Source: Marsupella aquatica (taxonomy: Eukaryota; Plantae; Marchantiophyta). Taken from it: a stretch of DNA of 64,000 bases. The notes beneath the pieces are model-generated. The model saw only the letters and a program-made list of their open reading frames with translations, did no database searches and was not told the DNA's origin. Where the stretch lies: NCBI GenBank assembly GCA_973895155.1, contig OZ316895.1, positions 19,358,803 to 19,422,802 of the forward strand, written 5' to 3'. The position numbers and the translations under genes are program-made. Each line of letters starts with the position of its first letter. Within the stretch, counting starts at the first letter, position 1. Below, one piece after another: positions 1-44,549 of this stretch.

Positions 1-7
1 TGCAAAT

Positions 8-544
8 GTGCATTGTTGTTTCCTCCCGCTTGGTGAGGAGGAGAAGATGGTTCGAGGGTTCTTTGGCCATGGAGGGCTTGTTGACAAGCTATGTACCTCA
101 CAGACCGATTTCTTGATTGCAAATACGCGGAAACAGGCCGTGGAGCACTTCAGTGACTATGCTGGCTTGATCGAGCATTTCGCTGAAACCGTGCATTTCA
201 TCTCTACTCGGTGGGTAGAGTGCTCCATTCTTGCCAACAAGCAGTTGGATCCAGGAGAGTTCTTGTTGCATCCGAGTAGTGATCATGGTCTAGAAGATTC
301 GCCCGAGGATGATGATGGTGAGGCCTACCCTCCCACCTTGTCTAAATGTGACCTGTCACCCACTGAACTTCAGATTGCTATGTTTGATTACAAGGAAAGT
401 TGTGCAGCCGAGGTGGAGGCTCAGAGGCTACAGGCCGGTGAAGCTATTGTGCGGAAGAATTGGAATGCCAGCCAAAGGCGTGCTTCGTACAAGAAGAGGA
501 AAGTGGACAAGGAGTACTACTGGTCTGGAGAAGGGACTCCTTAA
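8..544 (+). CDS. BRCT-like domain protein, 3' portion (probable transposon cargo)
   Basis: GGLVDKLCTSQTDFLIA...VHFISTRWVECSILANKQLDPGEFLL matches the BRCT pattern (GG, THLI-like strand, WxxxC helix). The 5' part lies outside the window. Confidence 0.55.
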   Translation: MHCCFLPLGEEEKMVRGFFGHGGLVDKLCTSQTDFLIANTRKQAVEHFSDYAGLIEHFAETVHFISTRWVECSILANKQLDPGEFLLHPSSDHGLEDSPEDDDGEAYPPTLSKCDLSPTELQIAMFDYKESCAAEVEAQRLQAGEAIVRKNWNASQRRASYKKRKVDKEYYWSGEGTP

Positions 545-1193
545 TCAACATCAGTCTGGAGGGAGGGTGTAGAGGGATGACCATGACTCATGTAGGCTAC
601 ATTTGCAGTAGAAAGGATAGTACAGCTATTGTGTATCTCTATTTGGTCTATGTGCAGCAATAAACACATCCATGAGTGCTATTTGTCGCAACAATTGTGT
701 GGTTTGAATGTTGTATCTTTTTCCTGTGATTAACGTCGAGGAAAATTTAGTACGTTGACTGAACCGTCGTATCTAGTTATTAACGTCGTTCTACTTGAGG
801 TAATATATTTTCGTTGCGCCATCATCGTTAAGAACGTCGTTTTCACCGTGTTACGACGTATAGAAGGACGTTAATAAACCCTTATAACGTCGGCTGATGG
901 TTCGGTACACGACGTTAACTACCATTACGGTGAATTGGCGTAGCTATAAACGACGTTAGAGAATTTGGTATCGACGTAAATTGTTTTGGACGACGTTAAT
1001 GATAGTTATCCCTTGTAGCAAAAGGCCGAGGGATCATGTCCATAAATGTATGGTTATTACTTGTTTCTTTACCAAGTGATTAACAAGCCCATCCCACTCT
1101 ACAAATTGACAGATGCCTAGGCCATGAAATATGTCTGTTTATATGCGAACCGTGACAACAGTCAATACAAATGGGGATAGTGAGTCTATCATG

Positions 1194-4100
1194 TCAATCC
1201 TCCTCGTCTACAATAGCTGATGGCATGAAGCCCTTCCTGCGGCGTGGAAAGATGGGAATCACAATGGACCATCCTCCCATGCTGTGCATCGGAACCATAA
1301 TGCATTGATCCACTTGGCTAGGAAAAACTATAGTGTCACTAAACTCAGTCCCGCTTGGTGCAACACGGGTCGTGTCCACACGATAAAATCCACACTCATC
1401 CTTCACCATGGTAGCTCTTGCTGGAGGTGACATGATGGACTTGTGCCACCTCACCTCTAACACCGTGGTGGTAAACGAGCCAAAATTAACATCCAAAATA
1501 TCCAAGACAATGCCACAATAAGGAACCTCAACATCACCTACATCGGTCACCATATATACTCCAGAGTTACAAGTACTCTTCTTCATATGGTCCGTCCTCC
1601 AAGTCCGAAAGTGGTGCCCTGACTCATACATGTGAGTATGACTCATAGCCCACATCGAAGGCCCCCTAATGATGTTATGTACATCAATGGGAATGAATGT
1701 AGGGCCATGCACTGCAAGGAGCCCCTCCATGCGCTCCAAGGCCCATATGCGAAATGATGCATGAACACGGTCTTGTGCTGCCCCTATCCGCTGCTGCTCC
1801 ACCCATGCCTTGCAAGTATTGGGTCACATATACATTAGATCCCAATATGTGCCAACCACCTTGAATGTACATTTCAAATCTAAGTAGGACTCAACATGAA
1901 GGATTACGTCCCTACCTATACAACTCTCTCCAATCTGACATCTCGGTGCGGTTCTCCAACACATAATTGTGGATCTATCGGTGAAAAATGTCATCATGTA
2001 ATGATCGCTTCTTTGATGCGCCCATCACTCGCAACCCACCATTATCATCATCTTGTGCCTCTTCCCAAGCTGTGGGAGCTTGTTTGTCCAAACTCCCTAT
2101 CACCCCGCTTGAGTAGAACAGGCACTCCGATATAATATACCCTGTTGCCATACTTCCCGCTGGTCGAGCGGGTTTGGTGCACCCAAGACTTTAGCACTTT
2201 CATGAACCGCTCTACCCAATACATCCACCGCGCATGCACTGGACCAGCAATGGCTACCTCATCCACCAGATGACATAGCAAATGCAATTGCATGTCAAAA
2301 ATACATGGGGGAAACACCTTCTCCATATTGCACATAACACGGGCAGACCGTTCCCTCATCTCGGGAATCTCACTCTCCTTTATTTCCTTGGCGCATACCC
2401 ACCTGTAAGGGGTACTCAAGATTTTGTCAAATTATTAGTATGATAAACATATACAATGATCATATCATAAATATATGCCAACAAGACTATGCTAACCTGA
2501 AAATGGAGCACAACTCATATACTGTATGTCGGAGTAGGCGTCGCTCTCTAGAATCATCACAACAACGCAAGACAGCAGGTAACACATGCTGAATCAACTT
2601 GTGATAATCGTGAGACTTCAAGCCGATTGGGGGTATGTGGTCTTCCCTTGTAGTGCACCCACGGAAGCCGGCTCCGTAATGGCTAGGGAATTTCATTTCA
2701 CATATCATCCCGTTCATCTCCTTCAAAATCTGTTTTGGCAAAACCCAAGGAGCAGGTGGCTTCTCCCCATCTCGAGTTATCCAACAACTCTTGACCACTC
2801 CAACCTGCTTTGCATCCTCTCGGACCCCACGAGTATCATTCATCCCATAAATGTGCTTCACCAGGTTCTTGGCAACATTTACTTCAATATGCATGGGGTC
2901 CAACAACCATCGGATGTGGAGCCTCTACAAGATGAAGAACCAGGTTGTGCTAGTGAGAAACTCATAAATAGAATACTACAAGTCACTAACTTAAAATAGG
3001 TCCAATCTGATTTTACTTACCCTCCAATAAGGCAAGTCCCACAAAGCTGAGTGACGATTGACACCATAGTGCTTAGGTTGAAGTAACTTTGCCTCCACTT
3101 TCTCCGCCATTTGAATTTGACCCTCAGCTGAAGGCCCATTGGGACATGGCCTAAACTCAGTCTCAGCCCAATGTGTGGTGTTATGTCACAATATATTGTC
3201 CATTGGCAAACGAACCCTACTGCCCTCATATGTGGTTTTGTGCAGACGCTTGGAGTATCTCCCATGCAACTCAGGACCACATGAAGGGCAAGCTGAATAA
3301 CCGGCCACTTTCAAGCCAGATATTGTGCCCATACCTGTCAATGACACTTAAAACATTCAGGCCAAAATCCATTGTCACATGCAATAGAACCATGCACAAT
3401 GTATGTCTCAATTATTTCTATGACTGAGAATTACCTGGACCATCCATGGTGCAATGGGTGATCATTGCTCTCATATTAAATGTCCTCCCATTATCCGGTG
3501 TACGAGTCACATCTGTGGTCACTGCCCCAAACTCCCATAGCTTCTGCAACTCTTCATAAGCTGGAGCCAAACAAATGTCTGGATTTTTATAGGCCTGAGG
3601 ACCCGGAATGATAGCAAGGAGGAGAACATGACCCTTCTTCATCGCCAACCATGGAGGGATATTTTTATTGAGCAAAAGAACTGGCCATATGGACTTAGGC
3701 TTCCGTCGTTGCTTGTATGGGTTTACCCCATCTATTGCTAACCCCAATCGAATGTTCCTTGGCTCCCTAGAAAAATCCGGCCAAGTGCTGTCGATGTGCT
3801 TCCATGTTGGACTATCGTGGTGATACCACATAATCCCTGGTGGAGATTTGTTCTCAGCATGCCATGTTTGAAGTGCTGATAAATGTTTCCGTCGATAAAG
3901 ATGCTGTAGTCGGGGTGTGATCGGGAAATACCTGAAGACCTGCCATAAACAGTGTTACAAGCATCACTTCGACGTTAAATCAAAGTTAATTACGTCTCAC
4001 ACAACATAAATACACCTGTACAATGTAACATACGATGTAAAGTTTCTTAGCGATGTTAGTAACGTTGGCTACTTCAGTTTATGTCTTAATTAACAATGTA

Positions 4101-6623
4101 AATATATGTGTACCATGTAGTAGACGACGTAAAAACTAACAGGTGATTTGGAGACGTAAGTTACATCTTTAGAAAGGACGTACGTGTGCGTACATCAGAA
4201 ATGACGAGGAAAATGGGCAAAAATACGTTCTAACAAACGTAACACCACCAGGAGGAGGAGGACATCACCTTCTCTGGGATCTTTTTGCCGATGGTATTCG
4301 GTCGGTACCGTGGAAGCTTACATTGTGCCTCTGGGCACTCTATATGCTCAGAGTATGTCCCTTTGTACAGGATGCAACCACTTGGACACATGTGGATAGT
4401 CTCTAAAGCCAATCCAATTGAGGTTAACAACTTCTTAGCTTCCCTCACACACCCAGGGAGAGTGTTTGGTTGGGGCAATAGTTTTTGGTGGAATAGTTGG
4501 AATAGTGCATCTGTATGGACGTCTGAAGTGTTGAAAACTCCCTGCAAATTCAACATCAACAAAGTGGCACCCAACCTGCATTTGTGAAACCAGGGATTTG
4601 TATGCAATTAGTTTGAGGTATGACATTGGGTGTGGTAAGTAATGGTCGAAACATTGGGTGTGGTAAGTCATGGTCGACACATGATACTATTCAATCATGA
4701 GACTTACCGTGATGATGGAGAATCCAGGAAGAGTGGAGTTCTGGCTTCCATTTCCAACTGGTCCCAATCTTCCTGGTCTACTTCCATGGTAGGCCTCTCG
4801 CCCCGAGGTGCATGTGGTCCAAAGTGAACGTCCCAAGGTGGGCAAAAGCTTCCTCTTCAAGAATGGGTGCATCCCCCTCATCTCCATTGTCCTCATCAAA
4901 GTCTCCATCATATGCATCATGGTACTCCTCATGGTCACTATCCCCCTCAACATCTTCCTCATCATAAAAGTGCAGAGTGGCCCGTAGGTGAAAGTCACGC
5001 TCTGACATCATCATCATGGATGGGTGAGGTGTAGGGGTAATGTATGCACCATCCTACAATTGTTTAATACAATATTATAATCAAACAAATAATAAAATAT
5101 GATTTAATGCAATATGCAACAATGGGTCCATATATTCTGAATGTATCATGTCCATCCTCAATGCCAATCATAATCTACAAAAATCTCTTCCCTTGCTCAA
5201 ATGGTGCGGCTAGCATGGGTCAAGATGTAATGAGTACAAGTCTGTGGCAAACGAGGGTGGGTCTGGTCATGGTACTCGTGCCACTCAGCGTTTGGCCTAA
5301 AACCTAAACGCCGACAACCCACAGTGCTATTGATGTAACCTGCCAAGTTTCCAGTGCGGGGTGGATAACCATCCATCTGAGCATACCTAGGGTCTAGCTT
5401 GATAGACATGCCATATCGACCAAAGGTCGGACATTGTCGAGACAAGATGCGTCATCGCTGTGCAGAATACTTTGGCCCATAGAATGGAAAGAGCTGAGGC
5501 AAGTCCTCGGGCTGACAACCATCAAGGACCACAATATCTACAAGTGCAAATAATCCTAATCCTACATTGGGGCCCAATGTGGAGGGAAGGAGGACCCAAG
5601 GGCAGCCCCAGACTATGATAGGTTCCCTGATTGGAAGGTCCAATGGGAGCCCAAATTGGGTAGGAAATGAGTCCTTTATGATGTCCAAGGCTCTCCCACG
5701 TAACTCTCTCGGTTCCCGGGCACTAGATGCATCAAGAAAAGGGCAACGGGGTGGCCTCATCCTAGGCGGACGAGACTCCAACGACCGTGGTCTAGTACTG
5801 ACCACTACTCCCCTCTCAATAGGGTGCACCCATGCCACCCTCACCCTATCAAATACACGGTCTATTGCCCGTAAGGTGGCATCTAGTGCCGATGGGGGGA
5901 CCAGTGCAGAGAGCGCTCGATGTGCAACCTCTCTCATGCAGTCCTTAGGGGGAGACCGTACAATAAGAATCTGTTCCACATGTATGCAACAAAATTTCAA
6001 AAAGCGAGAAACATGAACATTGCTCAAGAAGCCAACCTACCCCAACCTAGTAAAAGTTAAAGTTACTCAAAATGGTTGTGCAAAAGGATAAAACTTACCT
6101 CTGGTGTCGGTGGAACATAACAATCGTGGATCCCTAAGTGGCTAACGATGGTAGTGCTCTCGTGAGATACAACGCCCTTGCATCGTCTACAAGGGCAAGG
6201 CATCTTGCGGACTGGTCCAATACCATGAAGAGCAGCCATGGCCGCTCCAAACCCCTCCTCCGCTGGCGAAGGTGAGTTGTATGCCTGGGGCTCACGTGAT
6301 CGCCGGCGACGGTGTGACCGATGATGGTGGCTCCTCTCTCTCCTTCCGTCCTCATGACTGGGACGGTGATGACGTCGAGATCCACTAGTCGTCCTCCGAG
6401 GCAATGACTAACGACCCCTGCTCTCTGGTGAATAATCCCTCCTATCCAGTGAGTCATCCCTCCACCTATCCGGCGTATAGTCCCTCCTCCTAACCAGTGA
6501 ATGATCCCTCCTCCTATCCGGCGAATAGTCTCTACCCCTATCACGATGCCGGTATCTGGAGCCAAGACTCGTATCCCCATCATCTCTCTCATCAGACAGA
6601 GAGTCCGATGCATAGATCACCAT
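1194..6623 (-). pseudogene. CACTA transposase (Transpos_assoc Zn finger + Transposase_21 + DUF4218 + DUF4216 type), multi-exon, with stops and frameshifts
   Basis: Motifs CPCRRC..SHL (~6130-6210); IHMCPSGCILY; RYFPITPRL; DSPTWKHID..EPRNIRLGLAIDGVNP; LDPMHIEVNV; GLKSHDYH; HLLCHLVDEVAIAGPVHARWMYWVERFMKVLK; NSGV..YCGIV..PSQVDQ. GT-AG introns link the pieces. Confidence 0.9.
5160..5970 (-). pseudogene. SET-domain (lysine methyltransferase-like) exon inside transposase intron 1
   Basis: ORFs 5452-6027 and 5197-5445 share one frame. Reading through the two TGA stops gives GLGLFALVDI..FPFYGP..DGYPPRTGNLAGYINS..PNAEW..ILTHASRTI*AREEIFVDYDW, all hallmark SET motifs in order. Confidence 0.8.
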
Positions 6624-7074
6624 GCCCTGCAACAAATTGAACTGTCTTTGATTAATGCGTAGGGAAGGATCCAAACCCTAAACCTACCACACAAACCCTA
6701 ACCCTAAAGTACAATGCCATACAGTATGTTACAAGGCCTTAACGTCGTTTTTCGAAGCAACCCTAACATTTAACATCGTCAATGGACCCGCAAACAATGA
6801 CCTTTAAAACACAAAGGACGATGTTTATCTAGATTAACGTTGTTAAGTATGATGTGTTATGTACGTCATTTCACCTAACGACATCTGTTACGACGTAAAA
6901 TCAGGAAAACGGCGGATCCGCAAGGTTAGGCATCCCCGGTCATTTCCTTTGGGAAACATCGAGGGAGTATCGAGGGAGTGTTTGAATGTGACTCACATTC
7001 AACATTCCCCACCTCTAGTCCTTACCTCTCCTTGCCTCCTCTACCTCACATAATCGCTCACAGAATAGTCTGCC

Positions 7075-9190
7075 ATGTCGTATCCAGGCTATCTTCCCTG
7101 TAGTGTGAACTTTGATGCACTGAAGGTGGGTTTGGAGGATCCAGAGGAGTTGGAGAAGGTGCATCGAGCCCTACGTTCGACACATTCACTAGTTCAAGCA
7201 TTCAACCACAGCTGGCAATTCATGGGAGGACAAGGAACAAAGGAGTCCAGGTTTATAGAATACCTGGAGAGTATTGAGGCCAACACTCCTGCCGACGAGG
7301 AGGGGGCCAAGATTGAGGAGGGGGCCGCGATTGAAGTGCCTGAATCCGTGCCCGAGCTTGATGGGGCATCGATTGATATGCTGCCTTCATTCCCGAGTCT
7401 ACCAGACGATGGTTGGGATGATCCTGCCTTCACTGGGATTCAACTAGATTCTCAGGCAGCAGCTCGAACTCCTATCAAGAGTCAAGTGACAATCCCACAT
7501 GAGAGATACAGGCCAGAAGATGATAGGAGGGACCATCGGCAACATAGGAGGAGGAGGAGGCAATCTCGTTCTTCGTCAAACAGCAGCACTGAAAGGAGAA
7601 GGCGAAAGGGGAAAGGATCCAATGACCACAATGCAGGCACTTCTAGCAAGAGACATAGGGGAGATCGACATACAGGAGCAGAGAGGAGAGAAGACCACTC
7701 ACGATCATTTCCTCCAGAGCGGCGACGTCCTTCTCAGCAAGCTGCAGCTGCTTCTGCCAACAGGGAGCACCTTCCCACCATCACCCTTGCCGCTTTTGAT
7801 GCTAGGCCGGACGTCATGGATAAGAAAGCACTCACGAACAGAGTGCAGACGTGCGTAGCTAAACACTATCCCGGTTGGACTACTTGGAAGGAGCTTGTGC
7901 ATAACCAGAAGAAGTTCCAATTGCTCCTGAATGATGTGCAGGCTGGATTCAGAAATGGGCGAGAGATTGACTACCGCCACATTAGGAAGAAGATCGTGAA
8001 TCACCTAGCTGATCGGCATTTCAGGTGGAGAGCCAAGGTCCAAAAACTGAGATGCTTGAGGACAAGGGATTACAAGAAACCTGATGGGATGAGTGAAGAG
8101 GACTTCAAATTGATTGTCTCCGAATTGGAAGCAGCCCCAGACACCCCAGTTGGCAAGCGAGTGCATATGGGAGACAAGGCCACTGCTGTTCGAAAAGCGA
8201 GTGGCAAGAAGGTGACTAATTTTTGGGGACAGGGAGGATGGGGAGGATTTCTTGCAACCTATGTAAGTGCAGTGACTCACTCTATACTCATTGAAGTCTG
8301 CATTCTGTGGTTGTGTGCTGCTGCGGTGAAATCCTGTGCTTTACATCGTTTTTTAGTATTAACGTCATCTTGGCCGCACATTACCTTCCCTCTTACGATG
8401 TTTTCTTAGACGTACCTTGCCTCTAACTATGTTAGCACTATATTAACGTCGTCCTGTCAACGTTAATACTATGGAATCACCCTGAATGTCTTAATGGACG
8501 ACGTATGTATTAGTAACGTCGTATGATGATAGGTAAATCACCCTGAACGACGTAACTTCCCTTTGCTGCAGAAGCGGAAGTATGGCCGAGATGTTGAGCC
8601 GAGTGAGCAGGAGTGGCTATACTCTAAGCGATATGGCCCGGCAGCCCTATGGGCAAAGCTTGACTCTGTTCCGGAAGACCACCCGGTAAGTGTGCTAGCT
8701 TGTTCAGTACCATTCCATAGACCTAGACTAAAACTGTGTCATGCAAACCTAGACTAAAATTGTATCTTGTGCACAGGTGGATTGGACTGCACCAGAGGGT
8801 TTAGTAGCACGACCCATTGAGGAGGATGAGGAGCCCAACACTGTAGCCCTGGAGGAGGGTACCTAGGAGGAGGACCCAGTACCTTGCGGTCAGCAGGGCT
8901 CCACTTCTCGTGACCTTTTCCCTGCACTAGAGACTCATAGGGCCAGAGGACAAGGAAGGGAGAGACAGAGGGAGGAGGGAGATAGAGATAGAGATAGAGA
9001 TAGGGAGAGATAGAGATAGAGAGAGGAGAAGGAGGAGTGGTGAGAGGCGGTCCACTAGGGTAACACATAGCACCAGGCAGATAGTGCCAAAACCTAGAGG
9101 CAAGGCTCCACCCTCGGCTGCACCGGAACCAGAAGGCAGTAGCAGTGCCTCAAAGCAGGATGCCCAGCAGTATCAGTTGCGTCGGTGACG
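7075..9190 (+). CDS. CACTA second ORF (TnpA/Ptta-like accessory protein, spliced; 3' end degraded)
   Basis: 444-aa ORF with Arg/Ser-rich and W-containing helical regions (TTWKEL, KPDGMSEEDF, WGQGGW). Donors near 8262 and 8686, acceptors near 8571 and 8776. Divergent from the transposase. Family assignment is inferred from position. Confidence 0.55.
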
Positions 9191-10075
9191 AGGCGGAGGA
9201 TCGAGACGTGATAGGCCCCATTCTCAACGACATTAGGTTGTAGGTATTTCAGTAGCAGGAGGTCCTCCATGCATTATGTACATATTTTTTGCCATTTTGA
9301 TTCAGGCCACCCATTTGTGGTGGCACCTCATTCCGGGTTACAATATGTCAAAACACATGGTTATATTGTGTGTGAGCTGAACCCTAACAAGGACCCCACC
9401 CAGACAGTGCAATGTGTAATAGGATGTATGTACTCCCGTATACGTCCTCCTTTATAAGACCTTTAACCACCACAGTACATCGTTGAGCCCTACATAAGCC
9501 AACGTACGTCGCACAACAAGAGCACGATATATCGTCCCCTACTATGTCAACTTACCCAAACGTCTCAAAAGAGGTCATAATATACCGGCCACGGACAACG
9601 CTAAAATAATACGACGTTTAGTGCATTGCACATTACGACGTACTAGACGTGGTTAATGTTTCATTACGTAGCCTGACACGACGTTTATGGGTAAACTTAC
9701 ACACGAGCATTGGCCATATTTTACGTAGCCTAACACGTTGAAAAATCATATACCTCCTATTGTACGACGTTAAGAACAATGTTTTGGACGTGGTAAAGAG
9801 CGTCTCCCCAAACATGGTAATTAACGTCGCTCTATTAATGTCGTGAATGAGGTCTTTCCTCCTCCGGCCATATACGTCGTGATTAACGTCTTCTAAAAGT
9901 CCGTTAATCAGCCGTAAAATGTAGTTGTGTACACTCTAACACTACCTAGAATGGTGTGACACAATGCATGATTGGATCTGATTTGGACATCAAGCAAAAA
10001 ACATGCACATGTGCAACCGAGTCCTTGTTGTCCTGCAAACATTGTCACACAGCTACAAATAGCGTTGCTTGCTTG

Positions 10076-11280: not shown

Positions 11281-14200
11281 TGTGATGCCGCCAGCACGGT
11301 TGGTAATGAGTAATCTGGCCTAATCCGTGCTGAGCACGCACGCTACGAACTTAGCAGTCCGTAGTTATTAGCATAGCGACACTAAAATAGTTCAGGATTT
11401 CTTACCCAAAGCCAAAAGTTCTTTGGATAGAGCTTATCAAATTGAAGCATTGGAGGAAGCCCAGGTACTCGTAGCTCGACACGCAGCAAAGCAGCAAGCA
11501 ACTTCTAAGAAGTAGCACAACAAAGGACTACAAAAGATCAACATCATAACGGGGGATTTGGTGCTCCTGTACAATAGCCGGTACATGCAATTTTCGAGGA
11601 AGCTGCATACTGGCTGGTTGGGACCTTTCCTAGTCAATCAGATACACCCAAACGGATCTATGAAACTCGCAACGTACGCCGGTGATTTACTCCCCACACG
11701 AGTCAGTTATGATTGTGGGAAGAAGTACCATCATCAAGATGATACCGCTGGATATAGTGATGTTCACGAGGATGCTTCACAGTTAAGTAGGGAGCTATGT
11801 GACGCCGCTAGCACAACTGGTAATGAGTAATCCAACCTAATCCGTGCTGAGCACGCATGCTACGGACTTAGTAGTCCATAGTTATTAGCATAGCAACACT
11901 AAAATAGTTAGTAATTACGAATAGGACAAAATTAGTCAATAAAGAGCATTTATGCTCGGGCTGGCGACGAAGCGACACCTATATTATCGGGTTATGAGTT
12001 TGTTATGGCCGTCTACCTTGGGTCCGTATAACGGATCGAGAAGCGGCTCTCTAACATGCCTTGATTTGGACCTACATAGTGGCCAACACACTATAAGCGT
12101 GAAGAACTCGGCCTATTAGAAAGGGGCAGGGGCCGATCGACCGACGTCCCACCAAGGTATAAAAGGCGAGCCATTCCCTTGCTTAGTATTGGCACTTCAC
12201 TCCTCGCGCCAGCTTTGATCCCAGCTTGCCCGTTACTTCCTTAGCTATCCACCACACCTCACCATATGTCTGTCACAATTACGTCCAGTTTGGCCATTCG
12301 CTTTTGGCTTCAATTTCTGTCCATTGGTAATCATCTAGCAAAAACGCTTGCTAAATTCAACCCGCGCAGGTACAAAGCCAAAAGAGAGTACGAATGACTC
12401 ATCCGTTTGGCCGGGCGCTCTCACTACAACGATAACCTCAATCTTCCCTTTCAGAGCAAATTCTGTTGAGATGACGAGATTGCCAAATTCTTCTTTGACA
12501 GTTCAAAGTACCTCGGCTTTGGAGAAGCACTCCTTCAACTTTTGGACAAGGTCTTCACGATCCTGGGCATGGTGGACTTGTAGCGTCATCACTTCAACCA
12601 TATACCCACCAAAGTTCAGTCCTTCCTTGACTATCGATTTGGTAGTCCAAATACGGGCGAGTCATCAATCCTAACATCACTCGGATTCCCCTTCGACCTT
12701 CTAAATCCTATGGCGCCGCCTCCAACTACACCCACAGCCAACTCATTGGCACCATTGCAACCGCCGCCTTGGCCTCATTCAAGCTGCTCTCCACCACCGG
12801 TCGCACCAACCGTTTGGGTACAATCCGTGGTGAATGCGTTGAATATCAGCTTAGAGGACAAGGAGGCTCATCCTCCTCTTGTCCAGAGACCACCAGGGGC
12901 ACACCGCCACGGATCGGGTAACACATTGCCGCTTGCACAAGCCTGGACCCGAGAGATGGCCTCAATAGACAACACGGTGACCGTTGGCCCCGACACCAGT
13001 TCTGATTGCGGTCGCGCTAACCCTACCAGATAGGGAAGATGGGGAGATGTCCCCTTCTTCGACCCATCCCGGGAACAACTCCCAAGGAAGGAAGAGGAAG
13101 GAAGAGGAAGGAGCCAACTGCACTATCCGGTTTACCCGTGGCCACCGTCGCCATGGCCAAGTTGACCATGCATCGCATCATGGGGGAGAATCTTGGGGGA
13201 GAATGTTCACAAGAACATCCTCCATTTGAAGCATGTTGTGTACCTGAAGACCCAAGGTTTCAAACACCTTGCCGCCCTCCCTTGGAACACTTGCAGGTAC
13301 TACAGGCAAGACATGACGGAGTTCATCCAGAACTTTGACGTGGCCCGCCAACAGACCTGTGCACACAGACGGGTAATATCTTTGAATGAGGAGCAGCTTA
13401 AGCTCATTTTCAGCCTACCCGAGGGTCAAAACCGGGTGGAGTCACGGGCCCCAAGGGGCAAGGGAGCAAAGTACCAATCCTCGAGCTTCCCGCCCAAGGG
13501 TTTGGTGGACAACGGCTTCCTGATGAGGACATGCCTCATCCCGGAGATTGCAGAGCGGCTGGAGTTCCAGAGGTATGTCCTCCACATGATGGAGCCGCAA
13601 GGAGAGATATCCTTCGCCCAGGTGATCCAGGTCAAGACCTATCGGCCTAGAAAGTGGGCTTCCTTCTTCGTCAAGAAGTTCCACAAGGAGATGGAGCAAC
13701 AAAGGAAGACCCTGTACCTCAGGGGGAAGGCGTACCTCGCAAGCCACATCAAGATTATTATTGAGTGGTACGCCCGTTTTGATCGACAAACCCTCTTGCG
13801 GCTCAACAAGCCTGAGCTCACCCCGTCCTGGTGGGTCTTTCTAGCATTGGAATGACGGCCGCAGCCCAAAGCCCAGGCTCCAGCACCAGTAGTACCCACC
13901 CGGCCCCACCACCAGCCATTGAGACACCTTCTCCGGTGCCAAATTTGGCGGTAATTGCAACCCTGGATGCTCAAAACTAGGCCCGTGCAGTGACCATTGA
14001 GCGGGAGGAATCTGGCCCCGAGCTCGAGGCCATTAGTCTGGAGGGAACCGCGGTACCATCCGCACCAATGCCAGCAGACCCTCTTGCTGGGTGCCTTGCC
14101 CCCTCTAACCATCCTACCTTCGGGCTGGACGTAACAACCCCGGACTCTTCCCAAGTAGAAGTCTGCCCTTGCCCAAACCCGAGTGGGCACAGCTTGGTGA

Positions 14201-20159: not shown

Positions 20160-21432
20160 TTGCCTTGACATCTCTCATCTCGCCTCACATTTATATCTTT
20201 ATCTCACCAAGACAATTTTTTTCTCACCCTTGACATCTTTTAGGTCCTTGATTTTGTTTCTTTCCTCCATATATTTTCTCATCTGACTCAACATCGTTTA
20301 GGTCCCTGATTTTTGTTTCTGTCCTCCATATATTTTATCATTTGACTCGACATCTTTTTCTCACCTCCACATCTTTTCTCACATTGACATCTTTTCTTTT
20401 TCTCACCTTACCATCTTTCTCTCACCAAAACATCTTTCCCTCACCCTCAACATCTTTTCTCTCCTCAACATTTTTTCCTCATCTTTACATCTTTTTCTCA
20501 CCTCGCCATGTTTTCTTTCCTTGACATCTTTTTTTCACCTTGACTTCTTTGCCTCACCTCAACATCTCTTTTTCTCATTGAATTGACATTTGTTTTCACC
20601 TCTACATCTGATCTTTTCCTCACTTTCACATTTTTATCTCACCACAACATCTTTCCTTCATCTCCACAGATTTTTTCTCACATTGTCATATTTTCTCTCC
20701 TTGACATATTTTTTGCTCGACTTCTTTTTCTCAGCTCGACATCTCTTTTTCTCTTCAACATCTTCGTTCACCTTGACATTTTCTCCTCGCCTCAACATCT
20801 TTTTCTTGCCTTGACATCTTTCCTCTCCCTTGACATCTTTTTCTCACTTCAACTAGTTTTTCTCACCACACCATCTTTTGTGCAACTTTTGTCTTAACTA
20901 CGATATCGTTTTTACTTAACGACAGCTTTTCTCTTAACAACATCTTGGGTGCCACAACATCTTTTTTACTAACAACATCTTGGGTGACACAACATCTTTT
21001 TTCTTAAGTACATTTTGGGTGCCATGACATTTTTTTCTTAACGACATCTTGGGTGACACGACATCGTTTTTCTTAATGTCACCTTGGGCGACACCACACC
21101 TTTTTTCCTTAATGGCATCTTGGGCAACACAAAATCTTAACGACATCTTGGGCGATAGTGCATGTTTTTCTTAATGACATCTTGGGCGACACAACATCTT
21201 TTTGTCTTAACGACATCTTGGGTGACACGATATCTTAACGACATCTTGGGCGATAGTGCATTTTTTTTCTTAATGACATCTTGGGCGACACAACATCTTT
21301 TTGTCTTAACGACAGCTTGGGTGACATGAATCTTTTTTTTCTTAACGACATCTTGGGTGACACGACATCTTGGGTGACACGACATCTTGGGTGACACGAC
21401 ATCTTTTGTGCAACGCACAGGTATTGAGCTAG
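20160..21432 (+). mobile_element. Non-autonomous Helitron 3' portion with internal minisatellite
   Basis: Hairpin TGTGCAACGCACA (21407-21419) followed by CTAG|T (21429-21433), the canonical Helitron 3' end. 5' end not located. Confidence 0.65.
20930..21405 (+). repeat. Minisatellite built on GACATCTTGGG(T/C)GACAC
   Basis: About 13 copies with variable T-rich spacers. The final copies are a head-to-tail 17-bp repeat. Degenerate TTGACATCTTTT units extend upstream to about 20160. Confidence 0.9.
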
Positions 21433-23510: not shown

Positions 23511-23775
23511 CTCGATAGAGTTCTATTGTAGTTGAGTGCACTCTAATTAGAGTACTCTTCTACTGTACATAGAGAGGCAGTTTGACGATGAAGAAGATGG
23601 TTTGGTGTTCAGGTCTTGCCGAGTTGTCCTTTCCATAAGGCTTCACAGATGTTTTAAGGTCAGGTCCTGTAGATCTTTTAGAATTTCCAAGAAGAGGAGT
23701 TGGGGCACACATTCTTTAGAGTAATGCGGTGTATTTGCCAAAGCGAGCAAGGAGGTAGGGCACAGTTAGACGGGG

Positions 23776-26700
23776 ATGGCACCTAGTGGCCATCTGCTGC
23801 AACTTTTGCTTCCGAGCGTCAAGGCGATCAGAGTCGTAGGGACGACGACAAGGTCGCTCTCTTATGTTGTGCGCCCCCGCAGCTACAACAATAATAATTT
23901 CCAGCCAGAGGCAACGCCGCGTTGGCGGGGCATTGTGATGGCGAATGTGACGAAGGCGAATTTTCGGGAAGCTTGCGAGCAGCTGCAGACGCACTTGCAG
24001 GGGGCCGATTTTGTTGCCCTAGATTTTGAGATGACCGGCGTCGAGACGGCTCCGTGGAGAAGGCACTCTGAATTGGACACCTGCGAGACGCGCTATCAGC
24101 ACATCAAGAATTCTGCGGAATCGTTTGCCGTTTGGCAATGTGGAATTTGTCCCTTCCAGTGGGATGAACCTGGACAGAAATTCGTTGCTTACCCGTGAGT
24201 GTTTCTTGTTCCTTTCTCACATCGGGGAAAGATTCTTCCAGGACTCCAGGATTTGAGTAGTGAATGAGTGAGTGAATACAAATGAAAGAATGAATTGACG
24301 AATCAGTGAATGAAAGAGTGATAAAGCAGTGAATGAAAGAATGGAGGGAATGACAACATGGATGCATGAATTAGAAGGAATGAATTAGTGTATGAAAGAA
24401 TGAACGACTGAGTGACTGAATGGATAAAATCAGTGGATTACTTTTTATGTCTAGCCGCTTTTGGCATCTCTTAAGGTACATGACCTCCCATCCCCGTGCT
24501 CTATTTGAGTACTTTCAATTTTCTTTGTAGCTGATGATTATCTGTGCAAAAATTAGGGACACTGGAGCCCTTTGTACACTGCAATGCAAATTAACTTGTT
24601 CCTTTGTCAATAAGGACAATCAACTTCCATTTTAATGTTTTACTGACTGAGGTGTTTTTCACTTTGTTTGCGCTATGTTGGTAGACCCTTGTGGAATTCT
24701 CACCCTTGACGTGTTTGCTATTTGTACTTTTTCCTTTGCTGTTTGTTTCTGCTTGCTCTTTGGGTTCTTCCCTAAGTCGTTGCTTCGCCCTTGGTCCTCA
24801 AATCACTGATCACCAACTTTGACAATCTAACCTTATTTGGCTTGTTATATGGAATTTGTTTGGAAGTTTCTATGGGAGTGGTCCATAGTAAAACCCTTTT
24901 CTAGAAAGAGGATTTACGTTATGTTCGGATATTGATATGATTGCTTGGGAACACTGAAGAGGAATAATGCGTTTTCGTATACAATTGCGCAGACACAACT
25001 TCTACGTATTTCCACGCAACGAGTTACCCGTCGATATGACCTCTCGTAGTTATTTCTGCCAAACGACATCTCTGGAGTTTCTAGCAAAGCATCACTTTGA
25101 TTTTAATGCCACGGTTTATAATGGTAAGGCGAGTAGTTTCATATGACTAACTTTGCATTTTCTTTGTGTCATTTTCTAGGGTTCAAGACGGACTGGCGAG
25201 TAACTGAGAGGAAAGTTTTATATATCTTTGATGCGTTCCATTTCTTGACGATGAGCTGACCGTAATTATGTTTTGCTTTCAGGAATTTCATATTTATCAG
25301 TGGAGCAAGAAAAAATTGCAAGAGCTAAACTTGGGCTGACAGTGGAAGCCAGGATTCTGAAACACAAATATGTAGAGAGTGAGTCAGAGATTCCCCTTAC
25401 TAGAACAGCTGACGTTGTCTTCGCAGAGAGGGTAAGAGTTCAACTGGGACAGTGGCGGGATGGCCTCATGAGAAATAAATTGCAATGGCAGGTCACAGCC
25501 AAGGGAGTAAGAGGCAGCTTGAGCTCCCAGACAACCTCAATTGAACCTCCTGGCTTTGGAGTTTCTGGCATTCAAAGGGCTACCCAGGCTATAATTCCTG
25601 CTTTGGGGGAAGTTACTAGTGATGAAAGTTCAACCGTTCTCCGACCCTCTTATTATGTGGACATATTCGGTAATAATCAAGCGAAGCTGGTCAAGCAAGT
25701 GAGAGAGCTGATCTTGTCTTCCAGTATGTATTTCTGTACAATTTTAGAGGCTGTAGTGGAAACTGTGAAGCCTTGACCAATTTCGACTCACTATGGACAA
25801 ACTTTAGAAACATGTCCGGAGTGTCAAGATGCTTGTAGAGTACCCTCTAGATGTTATAATACTTATTCTCGTTAAGACAGCGCTGGATGAAGTTGCTTGT
25901 CATGACGATTGTCCGACTTAACAATCTAGATATCTTTTCGCAATATCCGTTTTTGCTTATGTTTTCTGCTCTTGGTACCTCTCAGATCTTATATCGATGA
26001 ATTTATATTTACCTCCATATTCTCAAGCATTGTTTGGCGTAGGTTATAAGGAAGCATTTTCCGGACCTTGTTCCTGTTGTGATGGCCAATCTTAGCAATG
26101 TGGAACGCCAGCAAGTGCGAATCATATTTACTTCTTCCACCGAAGACAAAGCAAATCTTCTGGTCCGTTTCCTTCCGTGCTGAAAGTGTCGTTTAAGAAA
26201 ACGCATACTTCCTGAGATGATTAGCCTTACCTGGCATCTATGTTCGTCAATTGCAGGAAGAATTGGACTTGGAGGAGTTGAGAGGCCTGGAGACTGTCCT
26301 CTCTAATGCTGTGGGGTTCCGTAAAATCATTGATGCGGTCAAAGCTTCTGGGAAACCGCTTGTTGGACACAATTGCTTACTTGGTATGGATATCGCATAA
26401 TCAGAGCCTCGTTCTGTAAGGCTACAACGTACACAATTTTTTCTTCCAGTGAGTCTTACTTTCATTTTGTTTTTGTCTCTGACAATGTCACATACGTAAA
26501 GAAACTAACGCATTCTGCAGGGTCATGATCATTTCTCATATTTGATATTTTGCTTTGCAGACTTGGCTCACCTGCATGATAAATTTGTTGGGCCCTTGCC
26601 TTCAAGCGTGAAGGGGTTTTCATCGTCTATGCTCAATTACTTTCCTTGTATCCTTGACACTAAGTACCTGCTGAAAACAGAGCCTACCCTGCGAGATGCA

Positions 26701-28097
26701 AATATAAACAGAAGTACCTCACTAGCAATTGTTTATCAAGAACTCTGTCATGGCTTCTCGGACAAATCGGCAATTCCGGGGAGATTCTATCATGGAAAAC
26801 CCAAAATTATTGGCAAGCCTATGTCGCGAGTAAAGTTGGAAATTGCAAGTGAACTCCAGAGGTTAGTTGTTTCATAACCAGGCTATGGCAATACTTAATC
26901 TCTCTTGGATTTCCCAAAGATGCTTGTGGGTGCTCCGTTTAATGCTCAGTCATGACAATCTTCTAGCTCCGCATTTGTTAATTTTGGTGAACCTATGTGT
27001 GCAGGTACTCTGGTGGACTGGATACAGGCTTAAAACATGAAGCTGGTTTTGATGCTTACATGACAGGTGCCGTCTTTGCTCAAATATGCCATTTGTTACG
27101 TGTTGATATCGGTACAATACGCCAACTCGCACACACAGCAGGTGGTACATCCATAGGTTTTGCAAGCTATGCGAATTTGATGATGTTACAAACCTTCCGA
27201 GGACAGGCTGCATTGGACCTGACCACAGGAAGTGAGGCAGTCGGGATCAAAGCTCCACGCGGACCGACAATACCTCCCTTCCGTTTGGCAGAAAGAGATA
27301 ATGTAGCGCTTTTCTGGGGACCACTCCCTGCACGTGGCCTGGAGGTATATTTGCGGAAAATTGTGCAGAACATCTTTGCCAAAGAAAGACGAATGGCAAC
27401 CATTGATATTTACCCTGTGGACGGAAGCTCTGCATTTGTAGAGTTTAGGAATTCTGCGATTCTGGACGATTTTTTCAAGGCTGTTGGAGGTTTAGTCGTC
27501 AGCAAGAGCGCAAGTTTCGGTGATGGCATAGAAAATGAATTCCCATTAAAAGCTGCGAGATTCGAGGCTTATGAGCGGATTTGCAGGTCTCCCCTGTCAA
27601 CTCCGTTACTTGGAACGGCAGCAGATTTGCTAGAGGTAAATCAGGTTGGGGGTGACTCTCTTGCTCGAATCGATGGCAGTCACGTTCCATCCGGAAAAGT
27701 GGAAAAGTGGCCAAACTCTGCAATTGGGGGTCAGGTAGCAACTGAAGGTCCAAATGCAGCCTTGGATACTGGGTCTTGTGAGGAAGCGATAGCTACCCCT
27801 TTGGAGGAAGAGATTAGTGGACAGACAGACAGCCAAGAGACTAGTCGGCAAATCCTGGAACCCACTCTAATCACCGAGTGCACAACTTCTGGTGAAGGCT
27901 CTTATTTGGGTAGTAGCTTTGTAGAGGCACCCATGAAAACAGACATGATCAGTAAAGGCAAGGACTGTTCCGATGAGAACATTAGATTTAGGAAGGGCAA
28001 GAGGCACGGTTCTGATGAGGATTATAATAACATTAGGACCCCAAAAAGGCCTAAATCAGGTCTTGGTACTGACGATAGTGGAGGGTCCAATCTGTGA
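23776..28097 (+). CDS. CAF1-family poly(A)-specific ribonuclease (PARN-like), 7 coding exons
   Basis: DEDDh motifs ALDFEMTG, VGHNCLLDL, LDTKYL, HEAGFDAYMTG. Approximate exons 23776-24194, 24993-25123, 25283-25697, 26043-26162, 26257-26382, 26561-26860, 27005-28097 with GT-AG borders. Confidence 0.9.
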
Positions 28098-31900: not shown

Positions 31901-34900
31901 CAGCAATATCAGACCAACTCCATGACTTCTCTGCATTGTATAGGTTGGTCGCTGGAAAGCTACCTAATTTCAAGCTTGGAGGATTGACTGGGGAGCTGCT
32001 CACTGCAGTATTCATTCCAGCAAGGGGGAAACTCATTAGGTCCCACACAAAAACAAATTGTAACCCTCACTGTACGGTATCCTTGTCGTACTGGAAAATC
32101 TCTGAATAGTAGCTGATGGACCTTAAGTTCTGGGTGCAGCCGTCCTTAAGTAATCTCCTGATTCTCATGCCTGGGCCGTAAGACTAGGTGGATAAGTTGT
32201 CAGCCCACATACCTGCTACGACAAGATCATCTTGCACTCCCAGCAGGGACCAGGAAGCATTGGTAGCAGGTGTTATCCTTGTAACTCTGCCACTGCACAA
32301 CCGCAACTGCATTTAGCCCCTGGTATATGGGCGTGGCTAGCCAACTTCTGAATTAATGTGAGTATAAGAATCAACATACCTTTCAATATCGACACCCAAA
32401 ATGACCTGTGAGCTTCTCCAGTGAGATGACAGCAACAATGTTGCGCCATCCGATAGCCAAGGGTGGGCAATTAGAGTAGGCACGTAAAGGCCCGGGAAGC
32501 CTTCTGGGTCAGGTAGATTCACAACAGGAACCTGAAACACACTGCATGCTTTAATATTGAACAAGAATTGGTCTCGATACGACTGTAAGGGTGTCCAGGC
32601 AACAAGAAAACGTGCTGAGCTTACGTTTGTAAAGCGGATTGTTCAATAAAAAGTGAGCATCATCATCATGAAGCAAACTCGGCATAAGATTGCTTCATAA
32701 AGTTTGGACTATCAGACATCCAAATTGCATAGCTTGCGTATCTAACATGAATAAATATGCTTTCGTTCCACTTCACTAATGTAAAAACACATAAAGCGGG
32801 ACTGACCACGTCTTTCATGGGGAGCTGTGACGTGGGAACTCCTCCTGCCGGCCAGGAAATGGCGTGCAATGAGTTTGTTGCAGAGTGCGCTCCACTGTCA
32901 ACAGCAGCTTTTGCAGACAAAAATACTAGAAGCTTCCCATCTGGACTGCACATTAAAAATAACGTTATCGCTTAGGCAAGGCGTCGTGCTGAAAAATGAA
33001 TTTCTAACCAGGTTTCCATAATTTTTGTTGAGTCCTCCTACATCCGCTTCCGGATGACCATGCAGGTTCCTCCAACGCGCTACTACATTTTTAAAGCAGG
33101 TACTGTATTTAACAAATTAGAGCAACGATCATTCCAATCAAAGCGTATCATAGTGACCTGAAACGTGGTGTAAGGGCGCTGCTTATTTCCCCTGTAAGCT
33201 TCACAGGAGCTGGAGTAGGTTGAGACTCATCCCTGCACGTAAAGCAAATTTCCCTCATGATGAGTTTTTATGACGACTTCCCTATTTTGGGTTCCTTGGT
33301 ACTACTTAAATAATGAATTTGTATCATCCAGACGAAGTTGAAGCTCGGATGGACCGAGCCCGTGAACTATGCAAAAACCCCATTGGACCGTAACACCTAC
33401 AGCTTCACTCGTTGACACCCTTCTCCTTTCCAATTTTATAAACAGAAATTGTCCACCGTATATCTCCCTTCATATCCAGCGATATCGGCGGTGCTTGGAC
33501 TTGTTAAAAGCAGCTCGGAAAGATCGTTCCAACGGGTCTAATATCTCTCGATTTCATGAAGAACTGAGAGACCTATGAACTTATGAAGATGAGTCGATCA
33601 CTCACTGTCCGCAATTCGTGCTCTCAAAAGTTTTTGAGCAGCTAACTTCGACATTTTGTATCTCCCTCGTATCCAATGTAATCGGCTGTTTTTGGAAAGA
33701 TCTTTCTAATGAGCCTAATGTCGTCAAATTTCATCGAGAATTGCAAGACCTGCAAATCTCCAAAGGTGACTGTTCGTTTTCTTATCACATTTCACTCATT
33801 AGTGTAACATATGCTATATGAGCAGAAAATAGGCTTTCGCTGCAGTCCATCTCTGCAGTCTATCAGAGCGTCTTGGCAACCATGGAGGTCCATTCGGGCT
33901 TCAATTTCCATTCAGACGGGCCATAATTTTTACAGGCTTTCACATCGGCCAGACTTCTCAAAACAATAATGAAAACACTTCCGGGCTGACTGTGTAGCTC
34001 ATTTGGGAGATACTGACATTATTTTACACAAATACCCATCTTTGATATTCAAACTAGTCGTATATCCATTTCGGAACTTGTCCAGCAAAATGAGTGTCCA
34101 GAGAGTATGCAGGATTGACCTGGTACCAGACGGTGCTTCAACTGCATAGAGGGCACAGGGCCTGTTGTAACAATATTTCATTCCCAGCTTCCTTGTGGTG
34201 CTAAAGTTTGAGGCATAGGATGTCCAACCCACAAATACCAAATACTGCTCTCCTTCACCGTCAGGGGGAGGTGGTGCCCACACGACTTGGCCGACACTGA
34301 CATCTTTTGGAATCCCTTCAACAACCTGCACACCACCACTGCAAACAGGGCTGTTTAAGTACAGGGATAGTCAGTCGAAAACTAGCGAGATTTCATATAA
34401 TATTGAAAAGATTGACAAATCAATCTGTGCTATCAGACACTGTAAGAGAATCAGCTGTGAGCAGCAGTACCAAATCTTGCTCCCACAAACCCTTCTACAA
34501 AATTCCAACTACCTCATCTCTGACTGCTTTCCAGTAGTTATCTTCAAAATGTCTGGCCATACCTTCCCAAACTAGCCACAAATAAAACCGGCCGCCTCTT
34601 GCCAGAGTAGGATTCACCCCAATCTTCTAGCCAATCTCCTTGCCCTTTCCAAGTCCCTGCATCTACTTCACCCTCTGACTTGCTACTCTGCCCTGTCGAG
34701 AAGAGAGACTGGCCAAACAATGGGCGAGACGGAAGTGGTTCCTCTGCAACATAAGCTATATGTTCTTCATCGTGGCTCCAGGACACACCTTCAAACCTGG
34801 AAAGGAACATCAGAGCACAACTTCTCAGCCCCTAGTACAGCACAATGCGTCGATCCATTAGATCCTAGATACAACGTTGCGTCACACTTATTGTAGAATC

Positions 34901-35634
34901 AATCTTGCTCGTCTTTAAGGACGGTAAACAAGTCACATACCAGCCGTCGGCATATACGGAACCATGGACAGAAGATGGAACATGTAGGTCCTTCAGGAGC
35001 TGTCCAGGACCCCAGATTTCAAGCTTCACGGCACATGCACCATCCTTGACAATTGGGTCTGCTTTCCGGACTATCAAAAGTTTTGTGCCCGATGGAGAGG
35101 GAACAATCAGTAATGCTCCACTTAATTCGAATGGAAATGGTGACCAGTGATAATCGGCCGGATTACTGGCTACGTCTGGTATGTATACAGTAGAAATGAA
35201 AGTCCGCTTGGCATTTGCATGAAGGTTGATTTGGCTCATGGCTACCACAACATCCACGCCTCCACTCCCTGCATTCCACAGAGAGATACTCAGACCTTGT
35301 CAGATCACAGATTGATTCGAAACGTTGAAAGCTCTTCATTGAGTGCCCTATCAATATCGGGTTGTAAGGATCTTTTCCATGAAATGCGGAGCTGCGTTAA
35401 TGAGAAAATCAGAATGATGTTTGAAGCAGTCATCCCAATTTCATAGATCACGGATCTCTATTCTTTAGAAATTGGCAAAAAACTGCGCTAACCTTTCCGA
35501 GATGAGCTCGTCCATGCCTTGTCAATGTTAGGGATAGAATAAAATGCCTGCAGCAATTCAGCCTCTTTCCCTTCGAGTACTTCGCTCTTGGTTCCCACCC
35601 CAGACGTCGCACTCTTCTCAGTTGACTGATCCAT
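28976..35634 (-). CDS. AARE: Acylamino-acid-releasing enzyme (S9C peptidase), many exons
   Basis: LHGGPHS, VNYRGSLGFGEEALQSL, GGSHGGF nucleophile (~30370-30390), RNPVCNL, GAQDRRVP, DVHSIDRPQSEFESFLN. N-terminal propeller with DWGE and YCYNRPCALY. Confidence 0.93.
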
Positions 35635-39306: not shown

Positions 39307-39437
39307 GATTGCCGGCATAGACACCGGGCCGGGGTCGTGCTAAGTCGGAATCCAAAAATCTTAACGGATTTTTGCGGGGACTTAGTGCTTCAACGTGCCC
39401 GATGGGTTGACTGCGGGCAGATTCGGTCGCTGGGGAC

Positions 39438-42400: not shown

Positions 42401-42635
42401 TACGCCTAGTCAGGACAAGCTTAAGGAGATCAAAGAATGGGAGCGTCCATCCAATGTAAGGCAAGTTAGAGCCTTCTTAGGATTTACGGGGTTCTATCGG
42501 AGATACATGAAAGACTATGCGAGGATCGCGAGGCCCCTCAATGCGCTAATGTTGAAAAACAAAGTGTTTGTGTGGACACAAGATTGCGAGTTAGCATTCC
42601 TAGAACTTAAGCGGTTAATGATAACGCCGCCGGTG
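39438..42635 (+). pseudogene. gag-protease-RT (gypsy), frameshifted
   Basis: ORFs 39438-40367, 40274-40525, 40870-41229, 41199-41519, 41520-41732 and 41739-42653 form a broken polyprotein. Confidence 0.9.
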
Positions 42636-44549
42636 ACACTCCAAATGCAATGAAGAGCCTTTGAGAACATGACCATTGTCTCTAAACTTTCAACTGATGA
42701 TCAACCATCCAAGAGATATGGAGAATTGAACGAGCTCTGCAAAATTGCTTCTTTGTCTTATAGATTTTGTTTGGTTGTATAGTAGGATATGTTGAAGCCA
42801 ACATATTTTGGCATCCGTACCAAGCAAATAGATGGATTTGTGATGGATAAGGGATTTCTCTTGTAAGTCCACAGGAGGATCAACGAGGGCTTGTCATGAA
42901 GGATTTCTTGAAGACAGGATGCCCGACAGGATGTGCATTCGAAACATTGGCATCCTCATCATTCAGCTCGTTGTGTCTCATTTTGTGACAAGCAGTTGGA
43001 ACGGGAGATGTCATAAGAAATGTGGCTACGTGTCATGGAGCTGCCTGATCAGCCGCTTGATTCTTTGTCATGCCCGTCACTTCTTGCTTATCCTATTCAG
43101 ATCGAAGAGTCAAAGATGGAAGCTTTTATGAGATGAAGACATGGGATGTTTTCCAATTTGGATGGTGATACTCACATAAGTTGGGCCTGCACAAGTAATA
43201 GTGCGTAGGCTCTGTCTTAGTCTGCAATTATAATGCTCCTCTGTTGTGGACCAATGGATAAGAAGCGCTATCGAGCATACAATTCTTAATTGCGGAAGTT
43301 TTACAAAATTAGTTTGGAGACTTTGATAGAATTCTTTGGCCACCAAGGTAATCACAGGAGTCCAAAAGAGCATTAACTTTCCGAGTCGGACAACTGCAAT
43401 TGCACCAGGCCCAGGTGCACTTGTCTAGAGGATCGCTTGTTGTTTCTTACTGGGCTGTTTCCTACTTGTCTCTTATTGTAATGCATCTTCTATGTACTGC
43501 AATTTGAGACTTATTTCCCCTTTTCAAAAAGCTCTGCACGAAACTACAATGTTCAGTTATCAAATCAAAGGAGAGCAACACGAAATTTAAAAAGCTCTGG
43601 ACAAACAGGTTTACTCGTGTCTGAGGTGTGTGTGTCCAGTGAACGTGATGGAAACATTTTGACATTCTTAGCTTTTAAAAATTTTAGCTAATGTCACAAA
43701 ACAAAACCTATTTTGATAGCACAATGTTGTACAATTTTTGACAGTCCACCACCCAGCGAGATAGTAGCTTCTAATAATATTAGCTTTATCTCACTAGTAT
43801 CTCTATAATTGTAATTGCATGCCTATAGAGTCACGGCTAGCAGTTTCACTCTGGCAATTGGCAGGGTTTCTAGTATCCCAGTCCTTTTGGCTGAAAAAAT
43901 TCATATCTTTGTTCAAAGAAAAAACAAATTTACACACATTCCTTGGATCAACAAGGGGTCCACGGACTAATTTCAAAATTTGAGTGACGTCTTGGCGACT
44001 TACTCTACAGGGTCGTCAATGTAGTCAATTTTTAGCACAGTAAACCTTACCTTTAAATTTGGCAGATTGGGTTGATTTATTTGTAAAGCGCGTGGACCTC
44101 CGTTTAAGTTGAAATGTAAGTTGAATGTTTCCAGCATGGTCTTTGATGTCCAATCTATTGCCTGACAAAGTTTGAGACTTTTTTAAAAATCATTTGCTTC
44201 ATTTTTGATGAACACTAAGAATTCAAATATTATAAATCATGATTTTACTTTACACTTGGAAATTTTCATGCGGGTCTATTGAAAACAAATGTTTCTGAGT
44301 AATGACATGATGTCTTGATATCTTCAGGTTTAGGGTAGTCAAAGACCTGTTTGGTAATGTAACTGAAACTGGTTGGGACAGTTAGGAAACAGTTTACAGG
44401 TTGCATTTTCAGTCAAAAGTGCAAACAACATTATCTGAGTCAAATTAAATATTTTGAGCAAGTCCATTCAAGCCGGCCTTTTGCTCAATGTCCTTTTGCC
44501 CATGGGGAATGCTACTATGACCAAAAGAGTAGATACTCAGTTAATGTAC

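Follow-up and report, generated by a model that had tools for sequence, protein, structure and literature searches.

Does the CACTA transposon at this locus encode a SET-domain protein of its own, or does it hold a captured piece of a host gene? The question arises from a window of 64,000 nucleotides of the Marsupella aquatica genome (the whole stretch of DNA that was analyzed, contig OZ316895.1), which contains a minus-strand reading frame with the motif order of a SET domain. An earlier note on this DNA, made from the letters alone, had proposed that the module is encoded by the transposon and that active relatives would produce their own lysine methyltransferase.

The element is a decayed CACTA (EnSpm) copy, in which the SET exon is located within intron 1 of the TnpD gene (Table 1). 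A zinc-finger exon precedes the SET exon, the transposase exons follow it, and its reading frame is closed by a stop codon. The earlier note had not recognized the module as an exon within the first intron of the transposase gene. The exons downstream of it matched the Pfam domains Transposase_21 (E = 6.7e-36) and DUF4218 (E = 1.1e-23), and were collinear with the gene models P0097, P0116, and P0142. The order Transpos_assoc, Transposase_21, and DUF4218 is that of CACTA/EnSpm elements, with the Transpos_assoc match in exon 1 (E = 0.0018 to 0.0024) falling below the cut-off, while DUF4216 had no match on positions 1197-1823. The divergent gene on the plus strand is probably the TnpA-like second gene of the element, to judge from its position and resemblance; the segment 7069-8406(+), where Transposase_24 was sought, had no Pfam match and no Atlas match over 0.78.

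Table 1. Features of the CACTA element and of the SET exon in the window.
Feature	Position	Strand	Description
Exon 1 (predicted)	6099..6623	minus	Arg/Asp/Ser-rich repeats, then CxCxxC...H zinc motif (Transpos_assoc-like), phase-0 GT donor
GT...AG intron, exon 1 to SET exon	5971..6098	minus	splice-site sequences
SET exon	5158..5970	minus	270 codons plus stop, two internal TGA
SET exon layout	helices predicted at aa 9-42 (two), linker of low confidence, SET domain from about aa 100 to 270		G137xG139, F163xG165, N214-S215, Y267
AT-rich spacer	5054..5157	minus	SET stop to next phase-0 acceptor
TnpD transposase exons	1194..5053	minus	acidic exon, Transposase_21, DUF4218, C-terminal exon; this copy disrupted by stops and frameshifts
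Divergent multi-exon gene	7075..9188	plus	no Pfam match; best Atlas score 0.78, uninformative
Right end	9480..9929		ACGACG/AACGTC-type repeat cluster and candidate terminus at 9929, minus strand reads CACAACTAC
Second repeat cluster	700..1000		same motifs, inverted relative to right end
Open frame, converges on TnpD	2..544	plus	BRCT_2 E 0.12; one homolog, 68%; repetitive in related runs

The right end contained 11 subterminal repeat motifs compared with 0.37 expected, and the second cluster 15 compared with 0.24, with 0 of 2000 shuffles reaching the count in either case, for a motif that was picked by eye from the sequence of the window itself. The low-depth contigs that were identical to the flank started at 9935-9936. 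To the left of the element, a search that allowed up to 3 mismatches found no terminal repeat partner of the CACAACTAC end, and the element may therefore extend past the window. Repeats of the same type also clustered inside the element, at 6730-6900 between the divergent genes and at 8350-8560 within an intron of the gene on the plus strand, with a weak cluster at 3960-4230 in a transposase intron; these internal clusters are possible binding sites. The open frame at the left edge of the window, for which the structure model was uninformative (pLDDT 41), may be additional element cargo or a repeat in its own right.

Outside the element, the window contained host genes for a CAF1-family ribonuclease at 23770-28094(+), an acylamino-acid-releasing enzyme at about 34002-35299(-), and a CoA-binding protein resembling succinyl-CoA ligase alpha at 50925-52538(+). 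It was also noted that the window contained a reverse-transcriptase element (RVT_1) at 39411-42650(+), a DDE_Tnp_4 transposase fragment at 44622-44996(+), a decayed Copia element at 58137-63061(+), a pair of 112-bp direct repeats at 11281-11909, and a degenerate tandem array with a strong strand skew at 20316-21407.

The ORFs 5452-6036(-) and 5197-5451(-) had previously been noted to share a reading frame, and this was borne out when the frame 5161-5970(-) was read from the acceptor at 5970 with TGA translated as X. The resulting protein of 270 aa contained the motifs GLGLFA...LFPFYGPKY...GNLAGYINS...PNAEW...ASRTIXAREEIFVDYDWH, followed by a stop at 5160-5158. A pattern for this motif order occurred once in the window and in none of 100 base-shuffled windows, a weak control since the pattern was written from the match itself. 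The internal TGA codons correspond to aa 173 (5454-5452) and aa 258 (5199-5197). At the first of these, 24 of 25 close homologs had Trp, and contigs of related genomes had TGG in all or nearly all of the depth in three sequencing runs. At the second, 19 of 24 close homologs had Arg, and AGA made up half or more of the depth in the contigs of related genomes (among the rows listed, 40 of 326). The suggestion that the stops arose by decay after insertion fits the sense codons that related copies have at both sites. Of the origins proposed for them, TGG>TGA agrees with the TGG in related copies, whereas CGA>TGA does not, as the sole alternative listed was AGA.

The Pfam SET profile (PF00856) matched the last 140 aa at E = 1.5e-4 (22.5 bits, cut-off 22.4) and the full 270 aa at E = 7.3e-4 (20.4 bits), and it matched 25 of the 26 aligned family members at E<=0.1. 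An AlphaFold model based on the alignment of these 26 sequences had a mean pLDDT of 85.1, and Foldseek returned 112 matches at E<=0.001; among the matches listed, all were SET proteins or complexes containing one. The independent aligner VIA ranked Set1 first (Z = 12.2, rmsd 2.6, 122 residues aligned) and SET8 next (Z = 12.0, rmsd 2.3, 121 residues aligned). These alignments span residues 100-270; residues 1-100, which comprise two helices predicted with confidence and a linker predicted with low confidence, were barely covered by the tests. Among the solved structures, a search with the single sequence gave no match and the first profile gave one weak match, and the best sequence match obtained with a profile was the bacterial LegAS4 (E = 4e-7), followed by MLL1 (E = 1e-3). 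The second Atlas match, a weak one, was to a bacterial cluster in which 11% of the members contain SET. The protein is thus predicted to have a SET fold. The profile search and the structure prediction, both proposed in the earlier note as checks, each gave SET matches, which upholds the motif order that it had described.

To judge the catalytic potential, we used an alignment of 159 proteins, in which the denominators vary by position. The glycines of the GxG motif were retained in 105 of 116 (G137) and 112 of 117 proteins (G139), N214 in 115 of 126, and a later Asn, which follows an insertion, in 114 of 117. In the ELx[FY]DY motif, aligned to ELTYDY in MLL1, E262 was retained in 102 of 105 and the catalytic Y267 in 98 of 100. 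The absence of the His in the NHS motif, as previously observed for the window, was found to be family-wide, with Ser in 113 of 125 proteins. The YxG tyrosine, aligned to EYAG in MLL1 and which we take to be the position of Y641 in EZH2, was Tyr in 61 and Phe in 52 of 115 proteins, with Phe in the window and in 23 of 25 close homologs. The protein in the window ends 3 residues past the catalytic Tyr, and the chain beyond this Tyr had a median length of 7 residues and was at most 15 residues in 74 of 91 homologs, none of which contained a Cys-type post-SET (CxCx4C). Judging from these sequences, the post-SET is absent throughout the family, which had gone unremarked. The protein resembles SET8, the SET domains of Set1/MLL, PR domains, and LegAS4 in its fold, its GxG and Asn, and an E[IL]xxxY motif that includes the catalytic Tyr. 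It differs from them in having NS for NH and no post-SET, at an identity of 14% to 24%, and it is not assignable to any subfamily.

Activity in the absence of the NHS His is known from PRDM9. The motifs NHS/CxxPN and ELxF/YDY are described as SET signatures in the part of PMC3178901 covered here, where the post-SET is part of the substrate groove and its truncation is tied to inactive PRDM constructs. On the evidence of the retained motifs, we lean slightly toward a catalytically active SET protein. If so, the Phe at YxG and the small residue located 2 positions ahead of the catalytic Tyr would suggest a di- or trimethylating enzyme, in line with the report that Tyr-to-Phe at EZH2 Y641 favours trimethylation (PMC3868588, in the part covered).

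It may be, instead, that the SET fold is catalytically dead and has been selected for binding, as a decoy or scaffold that binds a histone tail or a silencing factor of the host. The family-wide absence of both the NHS His and the post-SET would agree with such a role, and inactive SET proteins with chromatin roles are known (PMC12886896). However, the GxG, the Asn, and the catalytic Tyr were kept in at least 90% of the deeply diverged homologs. In the part of PMC12886896 covered here, the NH motif is essential for SAM binding, and the inactive SET-24 lacks both this motif and the Tyr motif. We therefore regard a dead fold as unlikely, yet as an explanation to be reckoned with.

An active methyltransferase could also act on a non-histone substrate, such as its own transposase, the TnpA-like protein, or a host protein, and thereby tune transposition post-translationally. 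The SET protein would have exon 1 in common with the transposase and hence be co-expressed with it, and the family proteins that were scanned contained no chromatin-reader domain apart from the zinc motif. Furthermore, the identity of the protein to histone enzymes in the structural alignments was only 14% to 24%. The best structural and profile matches were nevertheless histone lysine methyltransferases, and nothing indicates any particular non-histone substrate, which makes this explanation distinctly improbable.

How the SET protein would be produced is suggested by the exon structure. Exon 1 ends in GAG/GTAAGT. Phase 0 is common to its donor (6098), the SET acceptor (5971), and the acceptor that follows (5054), so exon 1 can be joined in frame to either acceptor. 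A stop at 6410-6408 in exon 1 was a sense codon in the related-genome runs X1 and X4. The same layout was identified at a locus with 46% identity, here called L001, which contained a zinc exon followed by GT, an intron, AG and a SET exon with a stop, a spacer, and AG with the acidic exon, all in phase 0. L001 carried one internal stop of its own, and the reading at the DNA level covers these two loci, both of which are decayed copies. It was also noted that exon 1 in the window contained, at 6420-6600(-), short peptides of the RRDYSPD type repeated in tandem, and that the corresponding position in L001 is occupied by a Ser/His-rich tract. Contigs of related genomes spanned from the SET exon into exon 1 and also into the acidic exon. 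The diverged copies retained the exons, whereas the intron and the post-stop spacer were not alignable: the alignment broke off at 5158 and restarted at 5056-5058, and in one diverged copy (run X4) the intron at 5971-6098 had been replaced, with both flanks still alignable.

At the protein level, a CxCxxC...H-type motif was located upstream of SET in 5 of the 37 homologs of at least 280 aa, namely P0056, P0058, P0067, and P0086, which are long and include the SET region, and P0097. Three of the 5 are from Riccia sorocarpa, for which the proteins are gene models (P0058, P0059, P0067, P0097, and P0116). Most of the remaining homologs of this size started inside or just ahead of the SET exon, as expected of gene calls that are blind to introns. 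Splicing of exon 1 to the SET exon would give a zinc-finger/SET protein of about 445 aa, and splicing past it would give the transposase, so that one transcript would yield 2 proteins with a common zinc-finger start. We consider such alternative splicing of exon 1 to be likely.

Contrary to a terminal SET exon, SET sequence and Transposase_21 were combined in 3 gene models, P0097 and P0116 from Riccia and P0142. These would be consistent with a constitutive SET exon in one long SET-transposase fusion, as in SETMAR. In the sources covered, SETMAR likewise has SET beside a transposase, but as one host gene to which a mariner transposase is joined in frame. However, P0097 and P0142 align over only part of SET, nearly all homologs stop just past the catalytic Tyr, no in-frame donor-like motif was found ahead of the SET stop in the window or in L001, and the diverged copies are alignable as far as the stop codon and not beyond. 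A constitutive fusion is therefore very unlikely.

A word-based search identified 25 homologs with open frames and 44% to 62% identity among 1570 candidates, the close ones including P0010 and P0013 from Calypogeia fissa. The same type of search for homologs of 474-2000 aa found none among 3494 candidates, but such proteins were recovered by a profile search, which gave 142 matching clusters. A tree was inferred from 81 rows, consisting of the window and 80 of the 159 proteins, the remainder of which covered too little of the domain. The window clustered with the 2 close Calypogeia rows in a group of 12 rows (support 97/84), inside a clade of 56 rows (96/92) that also contained an L001-like protein and 4 Riccia rows. 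As Calypogeia and Riccia are members of different classes of liverworts, the pairing of SET with the transposase is old or has moved between hosts. The tree was taken without host SET sequences, and gene transfer is not claimed. Distant members of the SET family, P0117, P0079, and P0186, were found in Ginkgo biloba (Gb_21150) and in Calypogeia fissa (503-506 aa, with other Cys/His motifs), and these may have been domesticated or may be carried by other elements. None of 32 pattern matches in viral contigs and none of 12 in prokaryote genomes was confirmed, in a search that reaches close relatives only, and the metagenome scan gave 1 of 57.

The summed contig depth over the SET exon, which is not a copy number, was about 1700 in run X2 and about 650 in run X3, compared with 29 and 26 for the contigs identical to the flank, and was of the same order as in the TnpD bins. 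The joints 4882-5845 and 3864-5467 were considered as elements without SET and were rejected, as they represent internal deletions.

In the SET part, the window and L001 were 53% identical in amino acid sequence, with identities of 0.63, 0.71, and 0.39 at the 3 codon positions, and only 15 of 63 four-fold sites were alike, which is the chance level. We further examined a sample of 30 SET-exon variants among the rows listed (40 of 326). Of the 24 that segregated among copies, 18 were synonymous (29% expected, p = 4e-6), whereas the variants common to nearly all other copies included 0 synonymous and 6 non-synonymous changes (Fisher p = 0.0016 against 18:6). These patterns show that the SET family is under purifying selection and that the copy in the window has decayed since its insertion. 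That a host SET fragment was captured by one element and drifts neutrally is scarcely credible, since, against the stops in both the window and L001 and the fact that CACTA elements pick up gene fragments (PMC8978399, in the part covered), the synonymous sites are saturated at 53% protein identity, synonymous changes are in excess among copies, the same layout recurs in distant relatives, and no canonical host SET was found among the strong profile matches examined. The module is multi-copy and under selection rather than restricted to one copy in neutral drift, and the earlier proposal of conserved, element-encoded cargo is sustained by the homologs, the shared exon layout, and the purifying selection. 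The SET cargo is real, conserved, and element-encoded; SET-carrying transposons as such were already known.

In maize En/Spm, TnpA and TnpD are 2 proteins produced from one transcript by alternative splicing. The window differs in that the putative TnpA-like gene is divergently oriented and that the alternative product would be the SET protein. Angiosperm CACTA elements have the transposase-associated domain, Transposase_21, and DUF4218 in the same order, and their additional domains are Transposase_24 and Peptidase_C48 in ORF2, with no mention of SET in the part of PMC8978399 covered here. The earlier view that SET is not standard CACTA cargo agrees with this source, but SET genes have been published for several transposon groups, including EnSpm/CACTA elements in red algae. 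In these, the Plavaka elements, the SET gene is called PAG2 (10.1101/2025.02.11.637652). According to the part of that report covered here, the likeness lies in the superfamily, in SET (PF00856) as conserved cargo, and in an activity that is putative in both cases, whereas PAG2 is a separate gene with SET fused to an N6-adenine methylase in elements of 17-19 kb. The SET of the window is instead an exon inside a canonical Transposase_21 gene, a comparison of layout and not of SET homology, and no DNA methylase family was found in the 26 aligned and 38 further family proteins scanned. SET genes are also described in HarbingerS and MuDR of Phytophthora (PMC12730594, citing Repbase Reports) and in proto-Helentron-Pi and Helentrons (PMC4067079). 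From the parts of these sources covered, they are likewise DNA transposons with genes for SET lysine methyltransferases, in other superfamilies and hosts, and the proto-Helentron SET is canonical and Clr4-like (E = 3e-24) with its own ORF, unlike the intronic exon in the window. VANC, the anti-silencing protein of VANDAL elements, resembles the SET protein as an element-encoded chromatin regulator but, in the sources covered, is not a SET enzyme. We found no published report of the land-plant CACTA-SET form in a search with Repbase Reports, subscription journals, and bioRxiv supplements outside its coverage, and an element of this kind could be present in Repbase or among the 335 EnSpm transposases of the Bostrychia supplements.

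Taken as a whole, our preferred reading is that of a decayed CACTA element with a conserved SET exon that would be reached by alternative splicing and would likely encode a minimal lysine methyltransferase serving the element, to which we assign a probability of about one half. A partner or a dimer may replace the missing post-SET. The likeliest benefit, for which we infer both substrate and target, would be a chromatin mark that eases silencing of the element; a histone at or near the element as the substrate is put forward tentatively. In the plants that host the family, transposons bear H3K27me3 besides H3K9 marks (10.1101/2022.10.24.513474, in the part covered). It is a more doubtful extension that bryophyte CACTA elements had an active histone lysine methyltransferase of their own before the main liverwort split, alternatively spliced, aimed by the zinc finger shared with the transposase, and functional without the NHS His and the post-SET.

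Transposon SET genes are known from oomycetes and red algae, with no assay in the papers covered. The SET family described here is small and intact in many natural copies, and it makes the self-writing of histone marks by a transposon testable. If active, the protein would be a SET enzyme that functions without 2 textbook features, and if dead, it would be a chromatin decoy that has been kept for a long time. In both cases, exons of this type will be mistaken in bryophyte genome annotations for host SET genes or for fusions of SET with a transposase.
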